DNA of 14,890 nucleotides, taken from Escherichia coli (GTDB lineage Bacteria > Pseudomonadota > Gammaproteobacteria > Enterobacterales > Enterobacteriaceae). Made by a program: the position numbers and the translations under genes. The stretch lies in the NCBI RefSeq assembly GCF_003334255.1, contig NZ_QOWU01000078.1, one strand, 5' to 3'. The notes under the pieces are model-generated. The model did no database searches and was not told where the DNA came from. It worked only from the letters and a program-made list of their open reading frames with translations. Shown piece after piece: positions 106 to 14,740 of this stretch (its first letter is position 1; the number at the start of each line of letters is the position of its first letter).

Positions 106-1650
106 TTACAGGTGTACTTCATCAATGTCTAACAATGACTTTTGAAGCACTTCAAAGACTGAACTATGGTCAAAGTCTTTGTTTTCTCGTGCAACTGAAA
201 TACCAGAGAAAGATTTACCATTCAATAAGCGTATAGTTATTTCTTGCTTGTAGTAGTCAAAAATCATCTCTTTGATAAATGACTTTATGGCAAGTTGTAG
301 TTTGATACGTCCCTCTACAGTTTTCCGGTCACTGTCTTGGATATCATTGTCTGACCTTAATGACTGGATAGCTTCAGCCTGTCTTAAATCCTTCTTCTTA
401 GATTCAAGTTCAACACGGTTGTTTGTTATTCTTTGGGCTAATGTGTCAAGGTCACCCAATCCTCTTTCTGCAAGGCTAATTAGGTTATTAATCCCTTTTT
501 CTAGTGATGTGATATCGGCTTTAAGCGTGGTAACAGAAATATTGTCACCATTACTCTTAAGGCTCAGATACTGAAGTGTGGGGAATACCTTTTGAATGAG
601 TATATCTTCAATCAATGAACGGTTAAATGCCTTAGAATTACAACGTCCAAGTTGACGATTACGACATTCAAGATAGCCTCTAGGGTAGCGTCCTTCTGGT
701 GTCTTCTTGGTATTACGCTGACGCAGTGTAGAACCACATTCTGCACACTTGCATATCCCTTTAAAGATATCAATAGAACTTGGTTGTCGTGAGGTTGGCT
801 TCTTGCCTTTGCCTTGACCTCTAATCATCTGTACGGCATGAAACTTTTCTTTTGAAATAGCAGGGGGGAAATAGTCACTGACTCCGTAAGCAACGCCAAT
901 TAGAGACTCCTTTAATAAAAGGTCACGTACTCTTGTAGGTGTCCAGCCTGTGTCTACCTTTTTATTCGTAATGGTGGGGATGTTTTCAAGATTTAAATCT
1001 CTGGCGATTGCATGTAGTGATTTTCCTGAAAGTTTTTCGTCAAAGATTCTATGAATTGTTTCTACGTGGTGAGGTATTAACGAAAATGATTTTCCGTCAG
1101 AATTGAGTTTTAACCATCCGGGGCAATTACCGGTTATCTTTGTTCCATCCTGTTCAAACTGTTGTCGTTTATGTGACCATACCTTTTTAATACGGTCAGA
1201 TTTAATAACAGACTCGTTATGGCTACGCTCTTGTAGGATAATCATTCTGATTAATGCGAGAGAATCATCAAGAGATTGGCGGTTATACGTTTCACCGTCG
1301 CTTAGAGTGACAACCGTAATACCTTGCTCAAGAATAGCCCTGATAGTTTCCTGTGCATGGCTGATTGACTGACGGCTTACACGGTCTAACGATTCCACCA
1401 GCAAGACAGAATCTGGCGGTATCAGACCTTGCTTAACAGCTTCAAGAAAAGCCCTGAGTGCTCCACCTTCTTTTAGATGGTCACCGTGAAAGGCTGAACG
1501 ACCTAAATCTTCAAAACTAAGAGATTCGTCTAGGATGTGGTCTGGATGGCTGGCTAACCAATCCTGTATGGCCTTACTCTGTCTTCGATGACTATCACCA
1601 AAAGCTTGTTTCGTTGACGAAAAGCGAATGTAACTGTAAACCTTCCTCAT
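106..1650 (-). CDS. Large serine recombinase (serine integrase; resolvase-type catalytic domain + recombinase domain + zinc ribbon + C-terminal coiled coil)
   Basis: 514-aa ORF. N-terminus YIRFSSTKQ fits the resolvase/invertase catalytic serine motif. A Cys cluster (CKCAECGS...YLECRNRQLGRCNS) fits the zinc-ribbon domain, and the C-terminus is heptad-rich and coiled-coil-like. An in-frame stop lies 6 codons upstream of the ATG, and there is no clear Shine-Dalgarno sequence. Confidence 0.85.
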   Translation of the reverse strand: MRKVYSYIRFSSTKQAFGDSHRRQSKAIQDWLASHPDHILDESLSFEDLGRSAFHGDHLKEGGALRAFLEAVKQGLIPPDSVLLVESLDRVSRQSISHAQETIRAILEQGITVVTLSDGETYNRQSLDDSLALIRMIILQERSHNESVIKSDRIKKVWSHKRQQFEQDGTKITGNCPGWLKLNSDGKSFSLIPHHVETIHRIFDEKLSGKSLHAIARDLNLENIPTITNKKVDTGWTPTRVRDLLLKESLIGVAYGVSDYFPPAISKEKFHAVQMIRGQGKGKKPTSRQPSSIDIFKGICKCAECGSTLRQRNTKKTPEGRYPRGYLECRNRQLGRCNSKAFNRSLIEDILIQKVFPTLQYLSLKSNGDNISVTTLKADITSLEKGINNLISLAERGLGDLDTLAQRITNNRVELESKKKDLRQAEAIQSLRSDNDIQDSDRKTVEGRIKLQLAIKSFIKEMIFDYYKQEITIRLLNGKSFSGISVARENKDFDHSSVFEVLQKSLLDIDEVHL

Positions 1651-1804: not shown

Positions 1805-2560
1805 TTAACGCGTTCGCTGCGAAAGCACCTGCTGCTTATCCAGCTTTTGCACCAGCGGCTGCACCACTTTATCCCCATGCTGACCAAAGTATTGATACAG
1901 CGTATCGGACGCACTTTTGGTCAGCACCATAATCTCAATGCGCCGGTTGCCCGCGCTTTGCGGATTTTTGGAATCCAGCAGCATCTGGTCCGCCATTGCG
2001 CTTACCTGCATCACTTTATCTTCCGGCATTCCGGCCTCTTCCAGCACCCGACGAGCCGAAAGCGCGCGGTCACCCGAAAGGTTCCAGTTGTTGTAGATAT
2101 TGTTTTTGTAGGCCATCGCATCGGTATGCCCGGTAATAATAATTTTATTATCGAGCGAGTCGAACACTGGCGCGAGCTCCACCAGCAGCGTTTTAAAGAA
2201 CGGCATAATCTTCGCGCTGCCGCGTTCAAACATATTGCGGTTCTGGTCGTCTTTAATCAGCACGCGTAATCCCTGGGGAACAATCTCCATCTCCAGATTC
2301 GCTTCCATATGCGCATCACGGGCAATGGTGTTGATACTGGTTGCCAGCTCACCAAGCTCGGTGGCGGATTTCTTCTTCAGCAGCGCCGTTTTCTCATTCA
2401 CATCACGCGCTTTTTTCTCCGTCTCTTCCGGCACCGCCACGGTGGCAGGTTTTGGCGGATGAGACGGGCTGATTTTATTTAACGGCGACAGCCCACCACC
2501 GTTAAAAATCGACTGCCCGTGCAGCGCGGCGATAATGCTTTCACGCTCGGATTTACTGAC
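1805..2560 (-). pseudogene. lafU: lafU remnant (MotB-like lateral flagellar motor protein, N-terminally truncated Flag-2 relic)
   Basis: The translation has a MotB/OmpA-like C-terminal domain (NWNLSGDRALSARRVLEE...RRIEIMVL) but lacks the N-terminal transmembrane helix. The six-frame ORF extends to 2695 only by reading antisense through lfhA. Position between lfhA and PdinB matches K-12. Confidence 0.75.
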
Positions 2561-4274
2561 GCTGTTGACAATCAACTTTATTGTCGTCACCAAAGGGGCC
2601 GAGCGTATTTCCGAGGTTTCTGCCCGCTTTACCTTAGACGCGATGCCCGGCAAACAGATGGCGATTGACGCCGATCTTAACGCCGGATTGATCAACCAGG
2701 CGCAGGCGCAAACCCGGCGTAAAGATGTTGCCAGCGAGGCCGATTTCTACGGCGCGATGGACGGGGCATCGAAGTTTGTGCGCGGGGACGCCATCGCCGG
2801 GATGATGATTCTGGCGATCAACCTGATCGGCGGCGTCTGTATCGGGATCTTCAAATACAACCTGAGCGCCGATGCTGCCTTCCAGCAGTATGTGCTGATG
2901 ACCATCGGCGACGGCCTGGTGGCGCAGATCCCTTCCCTGCTGCTCTCCACCGCGGCGGCGATTATCGTCACCCGCGTCAGCGACAACGGCGATATCGCCC
3001 ATGACGTGCGTAACCAGCTGCTGGCAAGCCCGTCGGTGCTCTACACCGCCACCGGGATTATGTTCGTGCTGGCGGTGGTACCGGGAATGCCGCACCTGCC
3101 GTTTTTGCTGTTCAGCGCCCTGCTTGGTTTTACCGGCTGGCGGATGAGCAAACAGCCGCTGGCGGCGGAGGCGGAAGAGAAAAGCCTCGAAACGCTGACC
3201 CGCACCATCACCGAAACCAGCGAGCAGCAGGTCAGTTGGGAAACCATTCCGCTGATCGAGCCTATCAGTTTAAGCCTCGGTTACAAACTGGTGGCGCTGG
3301 TGGACAAAGCACAGGGTAACCCGCTCACCCAGCGGATTCGCGGCGTGCGGCAGGTGATTTCTGACGGCAACGGCGTGCTGCTGCCGGAGATCCGCATTCG
3401 GGAAAACTTCCGCCTTAAGCCCAGTCAGTACGCCATTTTCATCAACGGCATAAAGGCTGATGAAGCGGATATTCCGGCGGATAAACTGATGGCCCTGCCC
3501 TCCAGCGAAACCTACGGCGAGATTGACGGCGTGCAGGGGAACGACCCGGCGTACGGGATGCCGGTCACCTGGATCCAGGCGGCGCAGAAAGCGAAGGCGC
3601 TGAATATGGGGTATCAGGTGATCGACAGCGCCAGCGTGATCGCTACCCATGTAAATAAGATTGTGCGCAGCTATATTCCTGATTTGTTTAACTATGATGA
3701 TATTACGCAGTTGCATAACCGTTTATCGTCGACGGCACCGCGTCTGGCGGAAGATTTGAGCGCGGCGCTCAATTACAGCCAGTTGCTGAAAGTGTACCGG
3801 GCGCTGCTGACCGAAGGCGTTTCCCTGCGCGATATCGTCACCATCGCCACCGTGCTGGTCGCCAGTAGCACGGTGACGAAAGATCATATTCTGCTGGCGG
3901 CCGATGTGCGCCTGGCATTGCGGCGCAGCATTACCCATCCGTTCGTTCGCAAGCAGGAGCTGACGGTGTATACGCTGAATAATGAGCTGGAAAATCTGCT
4001 GACCAACGTGGTGAATCAGGCGCAACAGGGCGGGAAAGTGATGCTCGACAGCGTGCCGGTCGATCCGAATATGCTCAACCAGTTCCAGAGTACGATGCCA
4101 CAGGTGAAAGAGCAGATGAAAGCGGCGGGGAAAGACCCGGTGCTGCTGGTGCCACCGCAGCTGCGCCCTTTGCTGGCGCGTTATGCAAGGTTGTTTGCGC
4201 CGGGGCTGCATGTGCTGTCGTATAACGAAGTGCCGGATGAGCTGGAGTTGAAGATTATGGGGGCGTTGATGTAA
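2535..4274 (+). pseudogene. lfhA: lfhA remnant (FlhA-family flagellar export apparatus protein, N-terminally truncated Flag-2 relic)
   Basis: 579-aa ORF with FlhA-family motifs (VVTKGAERISEVSARFTLDAMPGKQMAIDADLNAGLI) that begins inside the conserved transmembrane region, so about 100+ N-terminal residues are missing. Length matches the recalled K-12 lfhA fragment. Confidence 0.8.
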
Positions 4275-4297
4275 GTATCCAGCATTGGTGCACAACT

Positions 4298-4487
4298 GCC
4301 GGATGCGGCGTGAACGCCTTATCCGTCCTACCGTTCAGGCACAAGTTTGTAGGCATGATAAGACGCGCCAGCGTCGCATCAGGCATCTGCGCATAACTGC
4401 CGGATGCGGCATAAACGCCTTATCCGGCCTACCGATCCGGCACAAGTTTGTAGGCATGATAAGACGCGCTAGCGTCGCATCAGGCAT
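4298..4487. repeat. BIME: four REP (repetitive extragenic palindromic) units in alternating orientation
   Basis: GCCGGATGCGGCGTGAACGCCTTATCCGTCCTAC (4298-4331) and GCCGGATGCGGCATAAACGCCTTATCCGGCCTAC (4399-4432) alternate with GTAGGCATGATAAGACGCGCCAGCGTCGCATCAGGCAT (4349-4386, 4450-4487). These are canonical E. coli REP sequences. Confidence 0.85.
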
Positions 4488-4497
4488 CTGCGCACAA

Positions 4498-4995
4498 TTA
4501 TGAAATGATACGCTCCCCGGCACTAAAATCCGTTACGTCCCCCGCCCAATCGATGGGATATAACCCTCGCGCGACATCGCGATGGAACGTTGAGAATGGC
4601 CAATCACTCACTTGCTTTACCCAACCATGCTTTACTGGATTTATATAAATATAATCAACATGATGCCTATAATCTTTGGTATTGCGGATGGCGTGCTCCC
4701 AAAAACGTGGTTGCCAGATATTTTTCAATCCACAAGCATGGGTAAATTGCTTTTTAATTTCCCGCCAGCGCGAGGAAAAATCATCATCGCCTTCAGGTAA
4801 TGTCCAGATACAGTGCATATGCTCTGGCAAAACGACCCAGGCGTTGATTTCAAAAGGCCTGTCTCGCTTAACTTTAATAATGGCGTGACGGAGCATCTGG
4901 TACTGGGTGGTCAAAAGTTGGCTTCGACGATTTCGTAAATTCACCGTGAAAAACCATGTTCCCCCCTTGATGTAATAACGACGATATTCAGACAT
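4498..4995 (-). CDS. rayT: REP-associated tyrosine transposase RayT (TnpA-REP, HuH family; IS200/IS605-like)
   Basis: 165-aa ORF matching recalled RayT/YafM (MSEYRRYYIKGGTWFFTVNL...), with the HuH motif (PEHMHCIW) and REP arrays on both sides. Confidence 0.9.
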   Translation of the reverse strand: MSEYRRYYIKGGTWFFTVNLRNRRSQLLTTQYQMLRHAIIKVKRDRPFEINAWVVLPEHMHCIWTLPEGDDDFSSRWREIKKQFTHACGLKNIWQPRFWEHAIRNTKDYRHHVDYIYINPVKHGWVKQVSDWPFSTFHRDVARGLYPIDWAGDVTDFSAGERIIS

Positions 4996-5090
4996 GGCGA
5001 CTCCTTTTTCTCAACGGTAAGAAGAAAAGGAAAGGTTGGCAATGAGGTTGTTTTATATCGGGAAAGCGGCTCGCAAATATTCGCGGGCTC

Positions 5091-5174
5091 GTAGGCATGA
5101 TAAGACGCGCCAGCGTCGCATCAGGCACCTGCGTACAACTGCCGGATGCGGCGTAAACGCCTTATCCGTCCTAC
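5091..5174. repeat. REP pair (BIME) on the other flank of rayT
   Basis: GTAGGCATGATAAGACGCGCCAGCGTCGCATCAGGCA (5091-5127) and GCCGGATGCGGCGTAAACGCCTTATCCGTCCTAC (5141-5174), in inverted arrangement relative to the 4298-4487 array. Confidence 0.8.
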
Positions 5175-5920
5175 AAAATCGTCTCTTCCGTCAAAATCCT
5201 GCGCGCGCCCAAAAAATGGTCCTGCCAGAAAGGTTCGGCTAATCGGCTTATCCGAATGGTTTCGCCGGTACGTGGCGACTCGATAAATTGCCCATCGCCC
5301 AAATACACGCCCATATGATCGGCTATCTCGCGGCTGTGGATATGGAAAAACAGCAAATCTCCCCGGCGCAGGTCGTTGTTCGCCACAATCGTTGCCCGGC
5401 GATAGTGGTACATCTCATTGGCCGTGCGCGGGAGCTTAGCCTCAAGGATCTTGTTGTAGGCATAAAAAACCAACCCGCTACAGTCAAAGCCTTTATCAGG
5501 CCGCGTACCGCCCCAGACGTAAGGCTTGCCAAGCTGCTGCTCCAGGCGGTGAATCGCCACTTCGGTAATGTTATGCAGATGGTCGCTGCTTAAAAAGTGG
5601 TTGTTTTCCGCCAGCGCCTGCCAGCGTCTGTCACTCGCCTTGAGCGGAGCAGGAAACCATTCTGGATGCTGTTTTATCTGCTCCCGGTTGTGCTGGCGTA
5701 GCGCCCTTTTGCTTTCGGCATTGCCTTCCACAATATAGCTGGCCTGCTTTTTCAGATGAGTTTGGTACTGTTTTAATAAACGCGCACGGTTTTGCATCCG
5801 CTGGCGGGCGGCGTAGCTGAAAGAGATATGTGATGTGGTGGCGCTGGCAAATGAAGAAAACGGCAAACAAATCAACAGTAATCCCGACAATACAAAGGAT
5901 GGAATCGACGGCAAGGACAT
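5171..5920 (-). CDS. yafL: NlpC/P60-family putative peptidoglycan endopeptidase/lipoprotein YafL
   Basis: The ORF 5171..5980 contains MSLPSIPSFVLSGLLLICLPF... from codon 21, giving 249 aa as recalled for K-12 YafL. The NlpC/P60 Cys motif (DCSGLV) and His are present. The start is chosen by homology, not by ribosome-binding-site analysis. Confidence 0.85.
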   Translation of the reverse strand: MSLPSIPSFVLSGLLLICLPFSSFASATTSHISFSYAARQRMQNRARLLKQYQTHLKKQASYIVEGNAESKRALRQHNREQIKQHPEWFPAPLKASDRRWQALAENNHFLSSDHLHNITEVAIHRLEQQLGKPYVWGGTRPDKGFDCSGLVFYAYNKILEAKLPRTANEMYHYRRATIVANNDLRRGDLLFFHIHSREIADHMGVYLGDGQFIESPRTGETIRISRLAEPFWQDHFLGARRILTEETIL

Positions 5921-6097
5921 ACTCAATAATGGCTGGTCATGCTTTAATGTTGCAGTGTATCCCGGATCGTTTCTGAACAAACTTAATAAACCATTATTAT
6001 AAAATTAACATATATATTTCAGTTAATTATGTAAAAACATCCGTTTATTAAATTACTCATGGATTGTCGCTGTTGCTCATTTGAGCTACAATTCAAG

Positions 6098-6129: not shown

Positions 6130-6390
6130 ATGGCTGCTAACGCGTTTGTTCGCGCCCGAATCGATGAAGATCTGAAGAATCAGGCAGCGGACGTACTGGC
6201 CGGGATGGGGCTGACCATCTCTGACCTGGTTCGCATAACCCTCACAAAGGTCGCGCGTGAAAAGGCATTGCCGTTTGATTTACACGAGCCTAATCAATTA
6301 ACCATTCAATCAATCAAAAACAGCGAAGCTGGCATTGATGTTCATAAGGCCAAAGACGCCGATGATTTATTTGATAAATTAGGAATTTAA
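6130..6390 (+). CDS. dinJ: Antitoxin DinJ (RelB/DinJ family)
   Basis: 86-aa ORF matching recalled DinJ (MAANAFVRARIDEDLKNQAADVLAGMGLTISDLVRI...). Its stop lies 2 nt from the yafQ start. Confidence 0.95.
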   Translation: MAANAFVRARIDEDLKNQAADVLAGMGLTISDLVRITLTKVAREKALPFDLHEPNQLTIQSIKNSEAGIDVHKAKDADDLFDKLGI

Positions 6391-6392
6391 AT

Positions 6393-6671
6393 ATGATTCA
6401 AAGGGATATTGAATACTCGGGACAATATTCAAAGGATGTAAAACTTGCACAAAAGCGTCATAAGGATATGAATAAATTGAAATATCTTATGACGCTTCTT
6501 ATCAATAATACTTTACCGCTTCCAGCTGTTTATAAAGACCACCCGCTGCAAGGTTCATGGAAAGGTTATCGCGATGCTCATGTCGAACCGGACTGGATCC
6601 TGATTTACAAACTTACCGATAAACTTTTACGATTTGAGAGAACTGGAACTCACGCGGCGCTCTTTGGGTAA
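6393..6671 (+). CDS. yafQ: Toxin YafQ (RelE/YafQ ribosome-dependent mRNA interferase)
   Basis: 92-aa ORF matching recalled YafQ (MIQRDIEYSGQYSKDVKLAQKRHKD...), in operon arrangement with dinJ. Confidence 0.95.
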   Translation: MIQRDIEYSGQYSKDVKLAQKRHKDMNKLKYLMTLLINNTLPLPAVYKDHPLQGSWKGYRDAHVEPDWILIYKLTDKLLRFERTGTHAALFG

Positions 6672-6826: not shown

Positions 6827-7567
6827 ATGCGTAAAATCGCATTAATTCTTGCGATGTTGTTGATCCCGTGCGTTTCATTTGCCGGTTTGCTGGGCAGCAG
6901 TAGCTCTACCACGCCTGTGAGCAAAGAGTATAAGCAGCAGTTGATGGGATCCCCTGTCTACATCCAGATCTTCAAGGAAGAACGTACGCTCGATCTCTAC
7001 GTCAAAATGGGCGAGCAATATCAACTGCTCGACAGCTATAAAATCTGTAAATATTCCGGCGGCTTAGGGCCAAAACAGCGTCAGGGCGATTTCAAAAGCC
7101 CGGAAGGGTTTTATAGCGTCCAGCGTAATCAGTTAAAACCAGACAGCCGTTACTACAAAGCGATTAATATTGGTTTCCCCAATGCCTATGACCGTGCGCA
7201 TGGTTATGAAGGGAAATACCTGATGATCCACGGCGATTGTGTTTCCATCGGCTGCTACGCAATGACCAATCAGGGTATTGATGAGATATTCCAGTTCGTT
7301 ACTGGTGCGCTGGTGTTTGGTCAGCCGAGCGTGCAAGTGAGTATTTACCCGTTCCGCATGACCGACGCCAATATGAAGCGCCATAAATATTCCAACTTTA
7401 AGGACTTCTGGGAGCAACTGAAGCCGGGTTACGACTACTTTGAGCAAACCCGTAAGCCACCAACCGTTTCTGTGGTCAATGGTCGTTACGTGGTCAGCAA
7501 GCCGTTAAGCCACGAAGTTGTGCAGCCACAACTGGCATCAAACTACACGCTCCCCGAGGCAAAATAA
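6827..7567 (+). CDS. yafK: YkuD-fold L,D-transpeptidase-like protein YafK (DpaA/LdtF, peptidoglycan-Lpp amidase)
   Basis: 246-aa ORF with an N-terminal signal peptide ([19 protein letters not shown]) and the YkuD catalytic region ([13 protein letters not shown]). A Shine-Dalgarno sequence (AGGAA) lies upstream. Confidence 0.9.
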
Positions 7568-8305
7568 GCGCCATTCGCCTGGCATAATCTTTTGCCAGGT
7601 TTCATTGCCCGTCAGCGGCTGTGTTGCAATCACCGTGACCACATCATTCGGTGTGGTCTGCGAGCTGAAGTCGATTTCCACATCCTGATCCAGCAACGTT
7701 GCCACGCCAAACGGCGCGCGGCGGGTGATCCAGTGTAAATTAGTCGAGCAATACGCCATTACATAGCGCCCGTCCGAAAGCAGCATGTTGAAAACGCCCT
7801 TCTGCCGCAGTTCATCCGCCAGTGAGGCGATATATTTAAATACCGCCGCCATGTTGCCCGGTGTGCGCGGGTAACGCTGCGTTAATTTATGCAGGAGCCA
7901 GCAGAAGGCTTTTTCGCTGTCGGTTTCGCCTACCGGGCGGAAGTTGCCGGTTTCCAGTGATTTGTAGCCCGTCAGTTGTCCGTTATGGGCATAAGTCCAG
8001 TTACGCCCCCATAACTCGCGGGTAAATGGGTGAGTATTTTCCAGCGCCACCTCGCCCCGATTAGCCTGGCGAATATGAGCCACCACCGAACAGGATTTTA
8101 TCGGGTAGTCCTGGACAAGTTTGGCGATGGGGGAATTAAAGCTGGGTTGTGGATCTTTAAATGTGCGACAGCCTTTACCTTCGTAAAAGGTAATGCCCCA
8201 GCCATCTTTATGTGGCCCGGTTCCACCACCACGCTGTACAAGCCCGGTGAAACTAAAGCAGATATCGGTAGGGACGTTGGCGCTCATCCCGAGCAATTCG
8301 CACAT
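7538..8305 (-). CDS. yafJ: Class II glutamine amidotransferase-like protein YafJ
   Basis: The ORF 7538..8320 contains [19 protein letters not shown]... from codon 6 (255 aa). An N-terminal nucleophile Cys follows Met, typical of class II amidotransferases. A GGAGG Shine-Dalgarno sequence lies upstream of this start. The 3' end overlaps yafK convergently by 30 nt. Confidence 0.9.
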
Positions 8306-8368
8306 GGGTAACCTCCACAACAGCGGGAGCGCATGGCCCCCGGCGAAGATTGATTTAAGAATTTTCAG

Positions 8369-8503
8369 GTCGGATGCGGCGTGAACGCATTATTCGGCCT
8401 ACGGTTCGCGTACAGATTTGTAGGCATGATAAGACGCGTCAGCGTCGCATCAGGCATCAGCGCACAAATGCCGGATGCGGCGTAAACGTCTTATCCGGCC
8501 TAC
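8369..8503. repeat. BIME: three REP units between yafJ and gmhA
   Basis: GTCGGATGCGGCGTGAACGCATTATTCGGCCTAC (8369-8402), GTAGGCATGATAAGACGCGTCAGCGTCGCATCAGGCAT (8420-8457) and GCCGGATGCGGCGTAAACGTCTTATCCGGCCTAC (8470-8503). Confidence 0.85.
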
Positions 8504-8510
8504 GCCAGAC

Positions 8511-9089
8511 TTACTTAACCATCTCTTTTTCAATCAACTGGATCAGGATATGGATCACTTTAATGTGAATCTCCTGAATGCGGTCGGCATAACCAAAGTG
8601 CGGTACGCGAATTTCGATATCCGCCGTGCCAGCCATTTTGCCGCCGTCTTTACCGGTCAGGGTGATCACTTTCATTCCCTTCTCACGCGCCGCTGCGATC
8701 GCTTTGATCACGTTTGCAGAGTTACCGGAGGTGGAGATCCCCAGCAGTACATCGCCTTCGCGACCTACCGCTTCAACGTAGCGGGAGAAAATATCATTGA
8801 AACCGAAATCATTACCGACGCAGGAAATATGACTAACGTCAGAAATAGCAATCGCCGGGTAGCCCGGACGGTTTTCACGGTAGCGACCGGTCAACTCTTC
8901 GGCAAAGTGCATAGCGTCGCAATGGGAACCGCCGTTGCCGCAGGAAAGCACTTTGCCACCGGCTTTAAAGCTGTCTGCTAACAGGACCGCCGCGCGCTGA
9001 ATGGCGTGAATATTGGCGTCATCTTTTAAAAAGTTAGCCAGCGTTTCCGCCGCTTCGTTCAGTTCGTTACGAATAAGATCCTGGTACAT
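8511..9089 (-). CDS. gmhA: Phosphoheptose isomerase (sedoheptulose-7-phosphate isomerase), LPS core heptose biosynthesis
   Basis: The ORF 8511..9122 contains [20 protein letters not shown]... from codon 12 (192 aa). The SIS-domain motif ([16 protein letters not shown]) is present. Confidence 0.9.
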
Positions 9090-13253: not shown

Positions 13254-14390
13254 CTACGAAAGCCCGCTCCCCGCAAGGACTGACGCCAGGTAGTTTCTGT
13301 CCATGGCTGCTTTTCGCATCTTACGTCTTAACCCTGCCTTGAATACCTTCTCATTCGTCAAAATATTAATAGCAATGTGCCGTATCCCTGAAAATAATTC
13401 TGCTGCGTTTCCTCTTCTTATTTTGTAGTCGTCTTCATTCATTACCACGTCCAGACGCCTGTGCAGCTTATTCTCCACGTGCCAGTGGTTTCGGATTGCT
13501 GTGGCGAACTTCTCTGCGGTTAAATCAGCAGAACTGATATAATATCTGACCGTCATTTCGAGCTCTTTCTTTTGTTCTGCTATTATGGACCGAAAGGAGA
13601 CTGCCACGCATAATTTCTTCAGCCCTTTCCATTCAAACGTGAAATCAATAAGTTCATCAGGGACATCGCAAACAATATGAAGACGGATTTCTTCTCTGCC
13701 GTGACTCTTTTCACTCATTGCGTAACTGTCATGCTCTGGATTATTTAATTCTTTCAGCGGAAATTTTTCCTCAAAGGCTTTATTTAGCCGCCCCTGGTTT
13801 CCTTTTACCGCGAATAAATAATCACCTCCCTGTTTTTGTATCTTCTCTGCAATATCTTTCTGGCAACCCATCGCATCAGTTGTGATGATTTTTCCTTTAA
13901 TATCCAGCATGTTAAGAAGTTCAGGGATAGCTGTAATCTCATTGGATTTCTCATCCGTCCTGATCTGTCCGATGACCAGACTGTGCATTGTTGAGAACGC
14001 ACTAATGACATGAATCGCTCCCTTGCGGCGACTCTTGTCATAAGAATGCCGGAGTGTTTTTCCATCAATTGCGATGACGTCTTTATCATCTGAAGTATGG
14101 CAATCTCGCATCCAGTTAATAAAGCACTCGTGAAATTTTGAAGGACTGATACAGGATACAACTCTGGCGATGGTATCGTGAACAGGAATACCATTTTCAA
14201 AATCACCATATTGTTTTAAAAAATCGAGATGTGTTTCCCCAAAATCCTCTATATCTTCCCAGCCTTCTGCACCAGAAATAACGGCACAAATAGTCAACAG
14301 TAGAATATCCGATAATTTATGTTCCACTTTCCAGGCTTGTCTGTAATCGGGGATAATAGAAATATGTTCCATCAATTTTTTAAGTTCCAT
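13254..14390 (-). CDS. ISAs1-family transposase (H-repeat-associated ORF-H protein), apparently intact
   Basis: 378-aa ORF closely resembling E. coli H-repeat proteins (YhhI/YdcC/YbfD family). The K-12 equivalent position is recalled to hold only a short remnant (yafF). The IS ends were not delimited. Confidence 0.85.
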
Positions 14391-14488: not shown

Positions 14489-14534
14489 GCGAATTATTTA
14501 GTACAAAAAATCAGCGTTACGTGATCTTTCCCTG
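14489..14534. repeat. Direct repeat copy 1 (~46 bp)
   Basis: GCGAATTATTTAGTACAAAAAATCAGCGTTACGTGATCTTTCCCTG. Near-identical copy at 14741-14787. Confidence 0.6.
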
Positions 14535-14740
14535 CCCCTGCGCTCACTACCATGGCTCTTTACCACAGCAGCCGGGGTTGTTTGGGACCGACTTCCGACA
14601 GCAGATCCCGGTGGGCCTGCCACCATCTCTTCACAAGCTTATGCTTATTACATGCAAAACGTCCCGTTTTGCATCTTTGTGCCTACGGCACACCGGTGAT
14701 CTTTCCCTGATGAGGGATATATTAACTATTGAACATTAGC

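Follow-up and report, generated by a model that had tools for sequence, protein, structure and literature searches.

The locus lies in a 14,890-nt stretch of Escherichia coli DNA, the whole of which was analyzed and is called the window here. It contains rayT (also named yafM or tnpA-REP), an intact open reading frame (ORF) of 165 amino acids on the minus strand (4498 to 4995) that encodes an HUH/Y1 single-strand DNA nuclease-transferase. In the ORF list, the rayT region is bordered on the side of the lfhA pseudogene by an flhA-like ORF on the plus strand (2535 to 4274) and on the other side by yafL, an NlpC/P60 ORF on the minus strand (5171 to 5980) that ends at 5171. RefSeq also labels the locus rayT, flanked by yafL and a truncated flhA (flhA-like pseudogene). 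A 95-nt leader on the minus strand (4996 to 5090) runs from the repeats upstream of the gene to the rayT ATG, with AGGAG at 5005 to 5001, 5 nt before the ATG. A promoter scan found no sigma-70 consensus site upstream of rayT on the minus strand, and a terminator scan found no intrinsic terminator. Transcription of rayT may start at a weak promoter of its own or run on from yafL through the BIME. From 4150 to 5350 (1,201 nt), the locus agrees at 100% with sequences that include those of the K-12 derivatives J53 and MC4100.

The identification of the gene product as RayT in the first-pass annotation was borne out. The 165-residue product is 100% identical over residues 1 to 165 to chain A of PDB entry 4ER8, which is the TnpArep (TnpA-REP, or RayT) of E. 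coli MG1655, and it passes the NCBIfam equivalog model for REP-associated tyrosine transposases (NF047646) with a score of 179 bits (cutoff of 80; E value of 4.6e-53). The active-site residues given by Messing in 2012 are H59, M60, H61, Y115, N119, H123, and E161 (PMC3479197). In the translation, the HUH metal-binding motif H59-M60-H61 lies in PEHMHCIW, with numbering that matches 4ER8 in the same paper, and the single catalytic tyrosine Y115 of helix alphaD, N119 four residues on, and H123 all lie in HHVDYIYINPVKHG, while E161, which like H123 is a clade-specific ligand, lies in GERIIS. The HUH motif and the catalytic tyrosine, for which an alignment had been proposed as a check, are thus both present when the translation is read against the residue numbers of 4ER8. 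The Pfam Y1_Tnp model (PF01797) matched only residues 20 to 68 and stayed below threshold (E value of 0.082, 13.5 bits), and the family assignment therefore leans on NCBIfam and on the identity to the PDB entry. This marginal score fits the view that RAYTs form a clade separate from the IS200/IS605 transposases. A phmmer search of the PDB with E values of up to 10 did not reach the TnpA proteins of IS608 or ISDra2, and its extra matches (SAKe6FR and CcmK) were noise; kinship with IS200/IS605 is therefore taken from the literature.

To locate REP units, we scanned for overlapping approximate matches to the y and z2 consensus sequences of E. coli. Four lie on the 3' side of rayT. The outermost is a y unit on the minus strand (4297 to 4331) with its GTAG at 4331 to 4328 and two differences from the y consensus. 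It is followed by a z2 unit on the plus strand (4349 to 4385, GTAG at 4349 to 4352), which forms a tail-to-tail BIME-2/REPIN unit (4349 to 4432) with the next y unit (4398 to 4432, minus strand), and by a second plus-strand z2 unit (4450 to 4486), which is the nearest to the rayT stop codon at a distance of 11 nt. The 5' side holds a single BIME made of a z2 unit (5091 to 5127, plus strand; an iREP on the rayT strand) and a y unit (5140 to 5174, minus strand). The first-pass annotation had counted four units on one side (4298 to 4487) and two on the other (5091 to 5174); these counts are right, and the coordinates agree with ours within 1 to 2 nt. The y(-) z2(+) y(-) z2(+) succession in inverse orientation, with short linkers and a period of 101 nt, is that of a BIME-2. 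Two ORFs that cross this array, 4285 to 4503 (plus strand) and 4335 to 4523 (minus strand), were treated as repeat artifacts.

When the six units were aligned, each in its own orientation, GTAG was invariant at the 5' end of all of them, and they had the common core GATAAG...GCATC..GGCA. As single-stranded DNA, all six (35 or 37 nt) fold into a stem, a 2-by-2 internal mismatch, a second stem, and a tetraloop. The hairpin free energies were between -9 and -11 kcal/mol, with z scores of -2.1 to -3.6 relative to shuffled sequences; the outermost y unit gave -9.0 kcal/mol, and the y unit at 4398 to 4432 gave -11.0 kcal/mol (z score of -3.6). Hairpin and tetranucleotide, which had been named as a test of the flanking repeats, are therefore found in each of them by folding and alignment. 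With the GTAG-REP pattern GTAGGNNNGATAAGNCG and at most one mismatch, we obtained eight matches in the 14.9-kb window against 0.01 expected, a number that none of 200 shuffles reached; six of the eight are around rayT, and the other two are in a separate BIME at 8420 to 8503. The 32-nt oligonucleotide that was cocrystallized with the protein, GTAGGACGGATAAGGCGTTTACGCCGCATCCG (PMC3479197), occurs verbatim on the minus strand at 5174 to 5143 as the first 32 nt of the y unit on the 5' side. The yafL stop codon TAG (5173 to 5171, minus strand) is also the TAG within the GTAG of that unit (5171 to 5174), so the REP bound by RayT overlaps the end of the upstream gene yafL.

The first-pass annotation described the two flanking arrays as inverted, with opposing orientations, and this description is wrong. 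The right-hand BIME (5091 to 5174) is a direct repeat of part of the left-hand array (4349 to 4432), with 79 matches in 84 positions (94%). A repeat search found no inverted repeats within 4200 to 5300, which led us to reject the inverted arrangement. On both sides of the gene, every y unit is on the minus strand and every z2 unit is on the plus strand, and the two gene-proximal units are both z2(+), agreeing at 36 of 37 positions (4450 to 4486 versus 5091 to 5127). Along the coding strand of rayT, the succession is REP(y), iREP(z2), rayT, iREP(z2), REP(y), iREP(z2), and REP(y). The apparent mirror (y z2 y z2, gene, z2 y) comes from a shift of phase within a single alternating array that is co-oriented throughout. 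A REPtron was defined in 2010 by Nunvar as a RAYT with at least two inverted flanking REPs. At this locus only y/z2 pairs have that relation, for example, y(-) at 4398 to 4432 with z2(+) at 5091 to 5127 or z2(+) at 4450 to 4486 with y(-) at 5140 to 5174; the whole flanking arrays do not, being direct repeats with units of the same class co-oriented across rayT.

The window has a second BIME at 8368 to 8503, some 3.2 kb away from rayT and between ORFs at 7538 to 8320 (minus strand) and 8475 to 8981 (plus strand). The REP scan resolved it into a degenerate y unit (8368 to 8402, minus strand), a z2 unit (8420 to 8456, plus strand), and a y unit (8469 to 8503, minus strand). The BIME-2-derived Rfam model naRNA4 (RF02564) scored above its gathering score on the minus strand at every y-z2 doublet, with 77 bits at 4352 to 4429, 73 bits at 5094 to 5171, and 74 bits at 8423 to 8500, and in practice it picks up generic BIME-2 units rather than a specific sRNA gene.

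An indistinguishable BIME so far from rayT favors a possible, though doubtful, explanation in which the REPs are ordinary host-housekeeping BIME-2 elements. They would stabilize or attenuate the yafL and lfhA-side transcripts and serve as binding sites for gyrase, Pol I, or HU; rayT would be a relic that no longer takes part in moving them, and array size would vary through replication slippage or RecA-mediated unequal exchange between the 101-nt units. The y unit at 5140 to 5174, in overlapping the yafL stop codon, occupies a place suited to a 3'-end mRNA element, and a locus devoid of rayT (L007) retains a similar array. Much of the sequence evidence fits this main alternative, which does not exclude a role for RayT.

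In the 3'-side array, two BIME-2 units of 101 nt stand in tandem (4297 to 4397 and 4398 to 4498), and Tandem Repeats Finder reported a period of 101 nt, 2.1 copies, and 92% matches over 4290 to 4497. The first-pass annotation had taken them for near-identical blocks of about 100 bp that suggested recent duplication. The tandem pair stands, but the blocks are identical at 93 of 101 positions (92%) and are not near-identical. The duplication is recent only relative to the split between phylogroups and is not specific to the strain, as the pair is also found in JX21CE33. The blocks of that strain equal the two in the window in the 90 nt that were compared, and the two loci agree at 98% over 1,201 nt; the duplication is therefore older than the split between the window and JX21CE33. 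Units 1 and 2 of the window are 93% alike over 90 nt, whereas unit 1 of the window and unit 1 of ST131 are 83% alike, and the linker sequences differ from lineage to lineage. Since units within a lineage are more alike than units in the same position across lineages, the sequences point to amplification or homogenization of the array after the lineages diverged, a pattern already described by Ton-Hoang et al. (PMC3333891).

Across complete E. coli genomes, rayT was present in 3,575 of 5,426 (66%), at a median of one place and a maximum of two places per genome, with nucleotide identities of 90 to 100% among the genomes that bear it. In all nine other rayT-bearing loci that were fetched, the gene adjoins yafL and has an flhA-like gene on its other side, and the same neighbors are named in nearly all other rayT-bearing matches listed. 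A RAYT is expected to be single copy at a conserved site, and this is what the genome survey and the fetched loci showed. The retention of an intact, single-copy gene at such identities in about two-thirds of genomes suggests conservation, which argues against rayT being a relic. None of the phage records encodes RayT. Among the matches listed, the 100%-identical plasmid copies were on 214- to 242-kb plasmids of laboratory K-12 cultures, which we take to be F-primes.

The distribution also bears on whether the REPs and rayT together are an autonomous insertion sequence of the IS200/IS605 type that moves as one unit. A Y1 gene between subterminal hairpins that share a strand, flanking z2 REPs that are direct repeats, and a weak match to Pfam Y1_Tnp would suit such an element, but the match is below threshold (E value of 0.082), and the copy number has a median of one and a maximum of two, with rayT beside yafL in 10 of 10 rayT-bearing loci (the window and nine others). 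Its absence from phages, and the restriction of the identical plasmid copies listed to large plasmids of laboratory K-12 cultures, likewise speak against a transposing block. Moreover, RayT is a monomer, whereas the IS200/IS605 transposases are obligate dimers (PMC3479197), and the original authors rejected this interpretation (PMC3333891). Because rayT is single copy at a fixed locus, we reject an autonomous element, which has next to no chance of being correct: it is effectively refuted, as neither a variable location nor a Y1_Tnp match above threshold was found.

The first-pass annotation had proposed that REP copy number at the locus be compared across E. coli, and we did so for the window and nine other rayT-bearing loci. 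The 5' side of rayT carried one z2-y BIME in all 10 loci, while the 3' side carried between two and eight REPs: two in O157:H7; three in strain 48; four each in the window, JX21CE33, ST131, ETEC1717, and 65COLEC; six each in WCHEC020032 and VTB96815v; and eight in GN4738. Ton-Hoang et al. had reported the gene in 74 of 110 genomes, with an invariant 5' BIME and a variable 3' side (PMC3333891). In O157:H7 TW14359, rayT (570 to 1067 of its locus) is annotated as a pseudogene with an internal stop; this locus also has the shortest 3' array (two REPs). In ST131 (L003) and in loci L005, L010, and L007, most 3'-array z2 units have GTCG in place of GTAG. These units should not be RayT substrates because published mutagenesis found GTAG to be required; arrays with such units nevertheless reach eight units. 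RefSeq has "hypothetical protein" coding sequences wholly inside BIME arrays (504 to 662 of L005 and 569 to 913 of L010), which are probably spurious ORFs born of the repeats, like those at 4285 to 4503 and 4335 to 4523 in the window.

Strains without the gene differ in what they keep at the site. Strain M8 has no rayT but retains a perfectly alternating array of six REPs, and its junction z2 unit joins the linker of the 3' array to the z2 sequence of the 5' BIME. As judged from these sequences, an exchange between two direct z2 REPs that deleted rayT would give exactly this junction. In strain C51, hicAB occupies the rayT site, and there are no REPs. The hicAB genes, a toxin-antitoxin pair different from dinJ-yafQ, fill the rayT site in rayT-less B1-type strains (L008). 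Precise excision of rayT in B2 strains and replacement by hicAB in B1 strains were reported by Ton-Hoang et al. (PMC3333891).

The MG1655 version of this locus defined the E. coli REPtron and is the source of the protein and of the DNA seen in the TnpA-REP crystal structure. RayT binds only single-stranded REPs, and both the GTAG and the stem mismatch are required (PMC3333891). Its cleavage sites are CT dinucleotides of the iREP or linker, where a 5'-phosphotyrosine is formed, and its strand transfer in vitro can add REP units, as found with MG1655 REPtron substrates (PMC3333891). It is monomeric, is auto-inhibited by its C-terminal tail, and is active only with Mn2+ (PMC3479197). The first-pass annotation stated that RayT nicks and mobilizes its cognate REP sequences. 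Nicking holds in vitro for these very REPs (PMC3333891), whereas we infer mobilization.

Taken as a whole, the best explanation, which we consider very probable, is that the feature is the chromosomal E. coli REPtron, that is, rayT inside an alternating y/z2 BIME-2 array between yafL and the lfhA pseudogene. RayT would be a single-copy, vertically inherited, domesticated HUH/Y1 enzyme. In the published experiments, the monomer grips the folded single-stranded REP through the 5' GTAG and the stem mismatch, forms the 5'-phosphotyrosine at Y115 in the presence of Mn2+ as it cuts CT in the neighboring iREP or linker, and can rejoin strands. In vivo, RayT may act in trans on REP/BIME (REPIN) units that are exposed as single strands and may slowly spread and maintain the REP population of the genome, while tandem copy number at a locus would shift by local amplification or deletion; the REPtron itself stays put.

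The evidence on RayT-driven spread is divided. Auto-inhibition, the need for Mn2+, and the finding by Ton-Hoang et al. that strains with rayT and strains lacking it show only minor differences in REP number (PMC3333891) count against it. So does mobilome sequencing, in which no circular REP or rayT intermediates were seen. Auto-inhibition (PMC3479197) and the slight difference in REP number (PMC3333891) also favor the host-housekeeping explanation, and changes in tandem copy number could come from slippage or unequal crossing-over without RayT. On the other side, RayT specifically recognizes and cuts these REPs in vitro (PMC3333891), and genomes without a RAYT hold fewer REPINs (PMC8049555), both of which argue against a purely housekeeping role. 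The slow spread has an estimated rate of about 1e-8 per REPIN (PMC8049555).

The contrast between the constant 5' BIME and the 3' array of two to eight REPs with lineage-specific linkers might reflect a preference of RayT for acting in cis on the adjacent downstream REPs, although we regard this as unlikely. In that case, the 3' array would naturally record in vivo what RayT does, and the rayT-less alleles would result from an exchange, catalyzed by RayT or just homologous, between the direct z2 REPs on either side of the gene. Both the asymmetry of the two sides and the "precise excision" were noted earlier by Ton-Hoang et al. (PMC3333891); only the reading as cis action would be new.

Compared with known systems, the locus shows no difference within the feature from the K-12 REPtron; the MG1655 REPtron (PMC2817692, PMC3333891, and PMC3479197) has a 100% identical RayT and, alike, one 5' BIME and two 3' BIMEs, and only the wider window differs, through a recombinase-like ORF in the place of dinB of J53 and an intact ISAs1 transposase toward its other end. 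The feature is real, was rightly identified, and is already known in full detail from work published between 2010 and 2012. It has little discovery value here, as the comparison of copy numbers among strains, the study of hairpins and GTAG, and cleavage in vitro all appeared in those years; our additions are only the corrections to the orientation and to the claims of near-identity and recency. With the TnpA of IS200/IS605 elements (IS608 and ISDra2), RayT has in common HUH and single-tyrosine chemistry on single-stranded DNA, imperfect hairpins with a 5' guide tetranucleotide, and a gene placed between hairpins on one strand. Unlike them, it is a monomer, is auto-inhibited by a C-terminal tail (E161), depends on Mn2+, has N119 rather than Q as a metal ligand, and is single copy and immobile, with hundreds of REPs as its presumed targets in trans. 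In the Pseudomonas REPIN-RAYT system (Bertels and Rainey 2011; PMC3116915), a single-copy RAYT also lies beside its cognate REP doublets, and the doublet is the presumed mobile unit there as in E. coli (here z2-y, 84 nt). In contrast to those of Pseudomonas, the doublets of E. coli are asymmetric, with a y and a z2 unit, and are commonly amplified in tandem as BIME-2.

Outside the rayT locus, none of the E. coli genomes among the best matches listed carried the whole window in one place. A 514-amino-acid ORF (106 to 1650, minus strand) lies beside lafU, where the K-12 derivative J53 has dinB, so despite its K-12-identical rayT locus, the window as a whole is not K-12. This ORF has a weak match to serine recombinases (XisF-like; 51 bits, below the cutoff). 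At the other end of the window, the Rfam model group-II-D1D4-2 (RF01999) matched over its full length at 14504 to 14624 on the minus strand (81.8 bits, E value of 1.6e-15), and an intact ISAs1-family transposase ORF (13254 to 14390, minus strand) ends just short of this match; this end may hold a group II intron, whole or in part. Just past yafL, the dinJ-yafQ type II toxin-antitoxin pair is found at 6130 to 6671.
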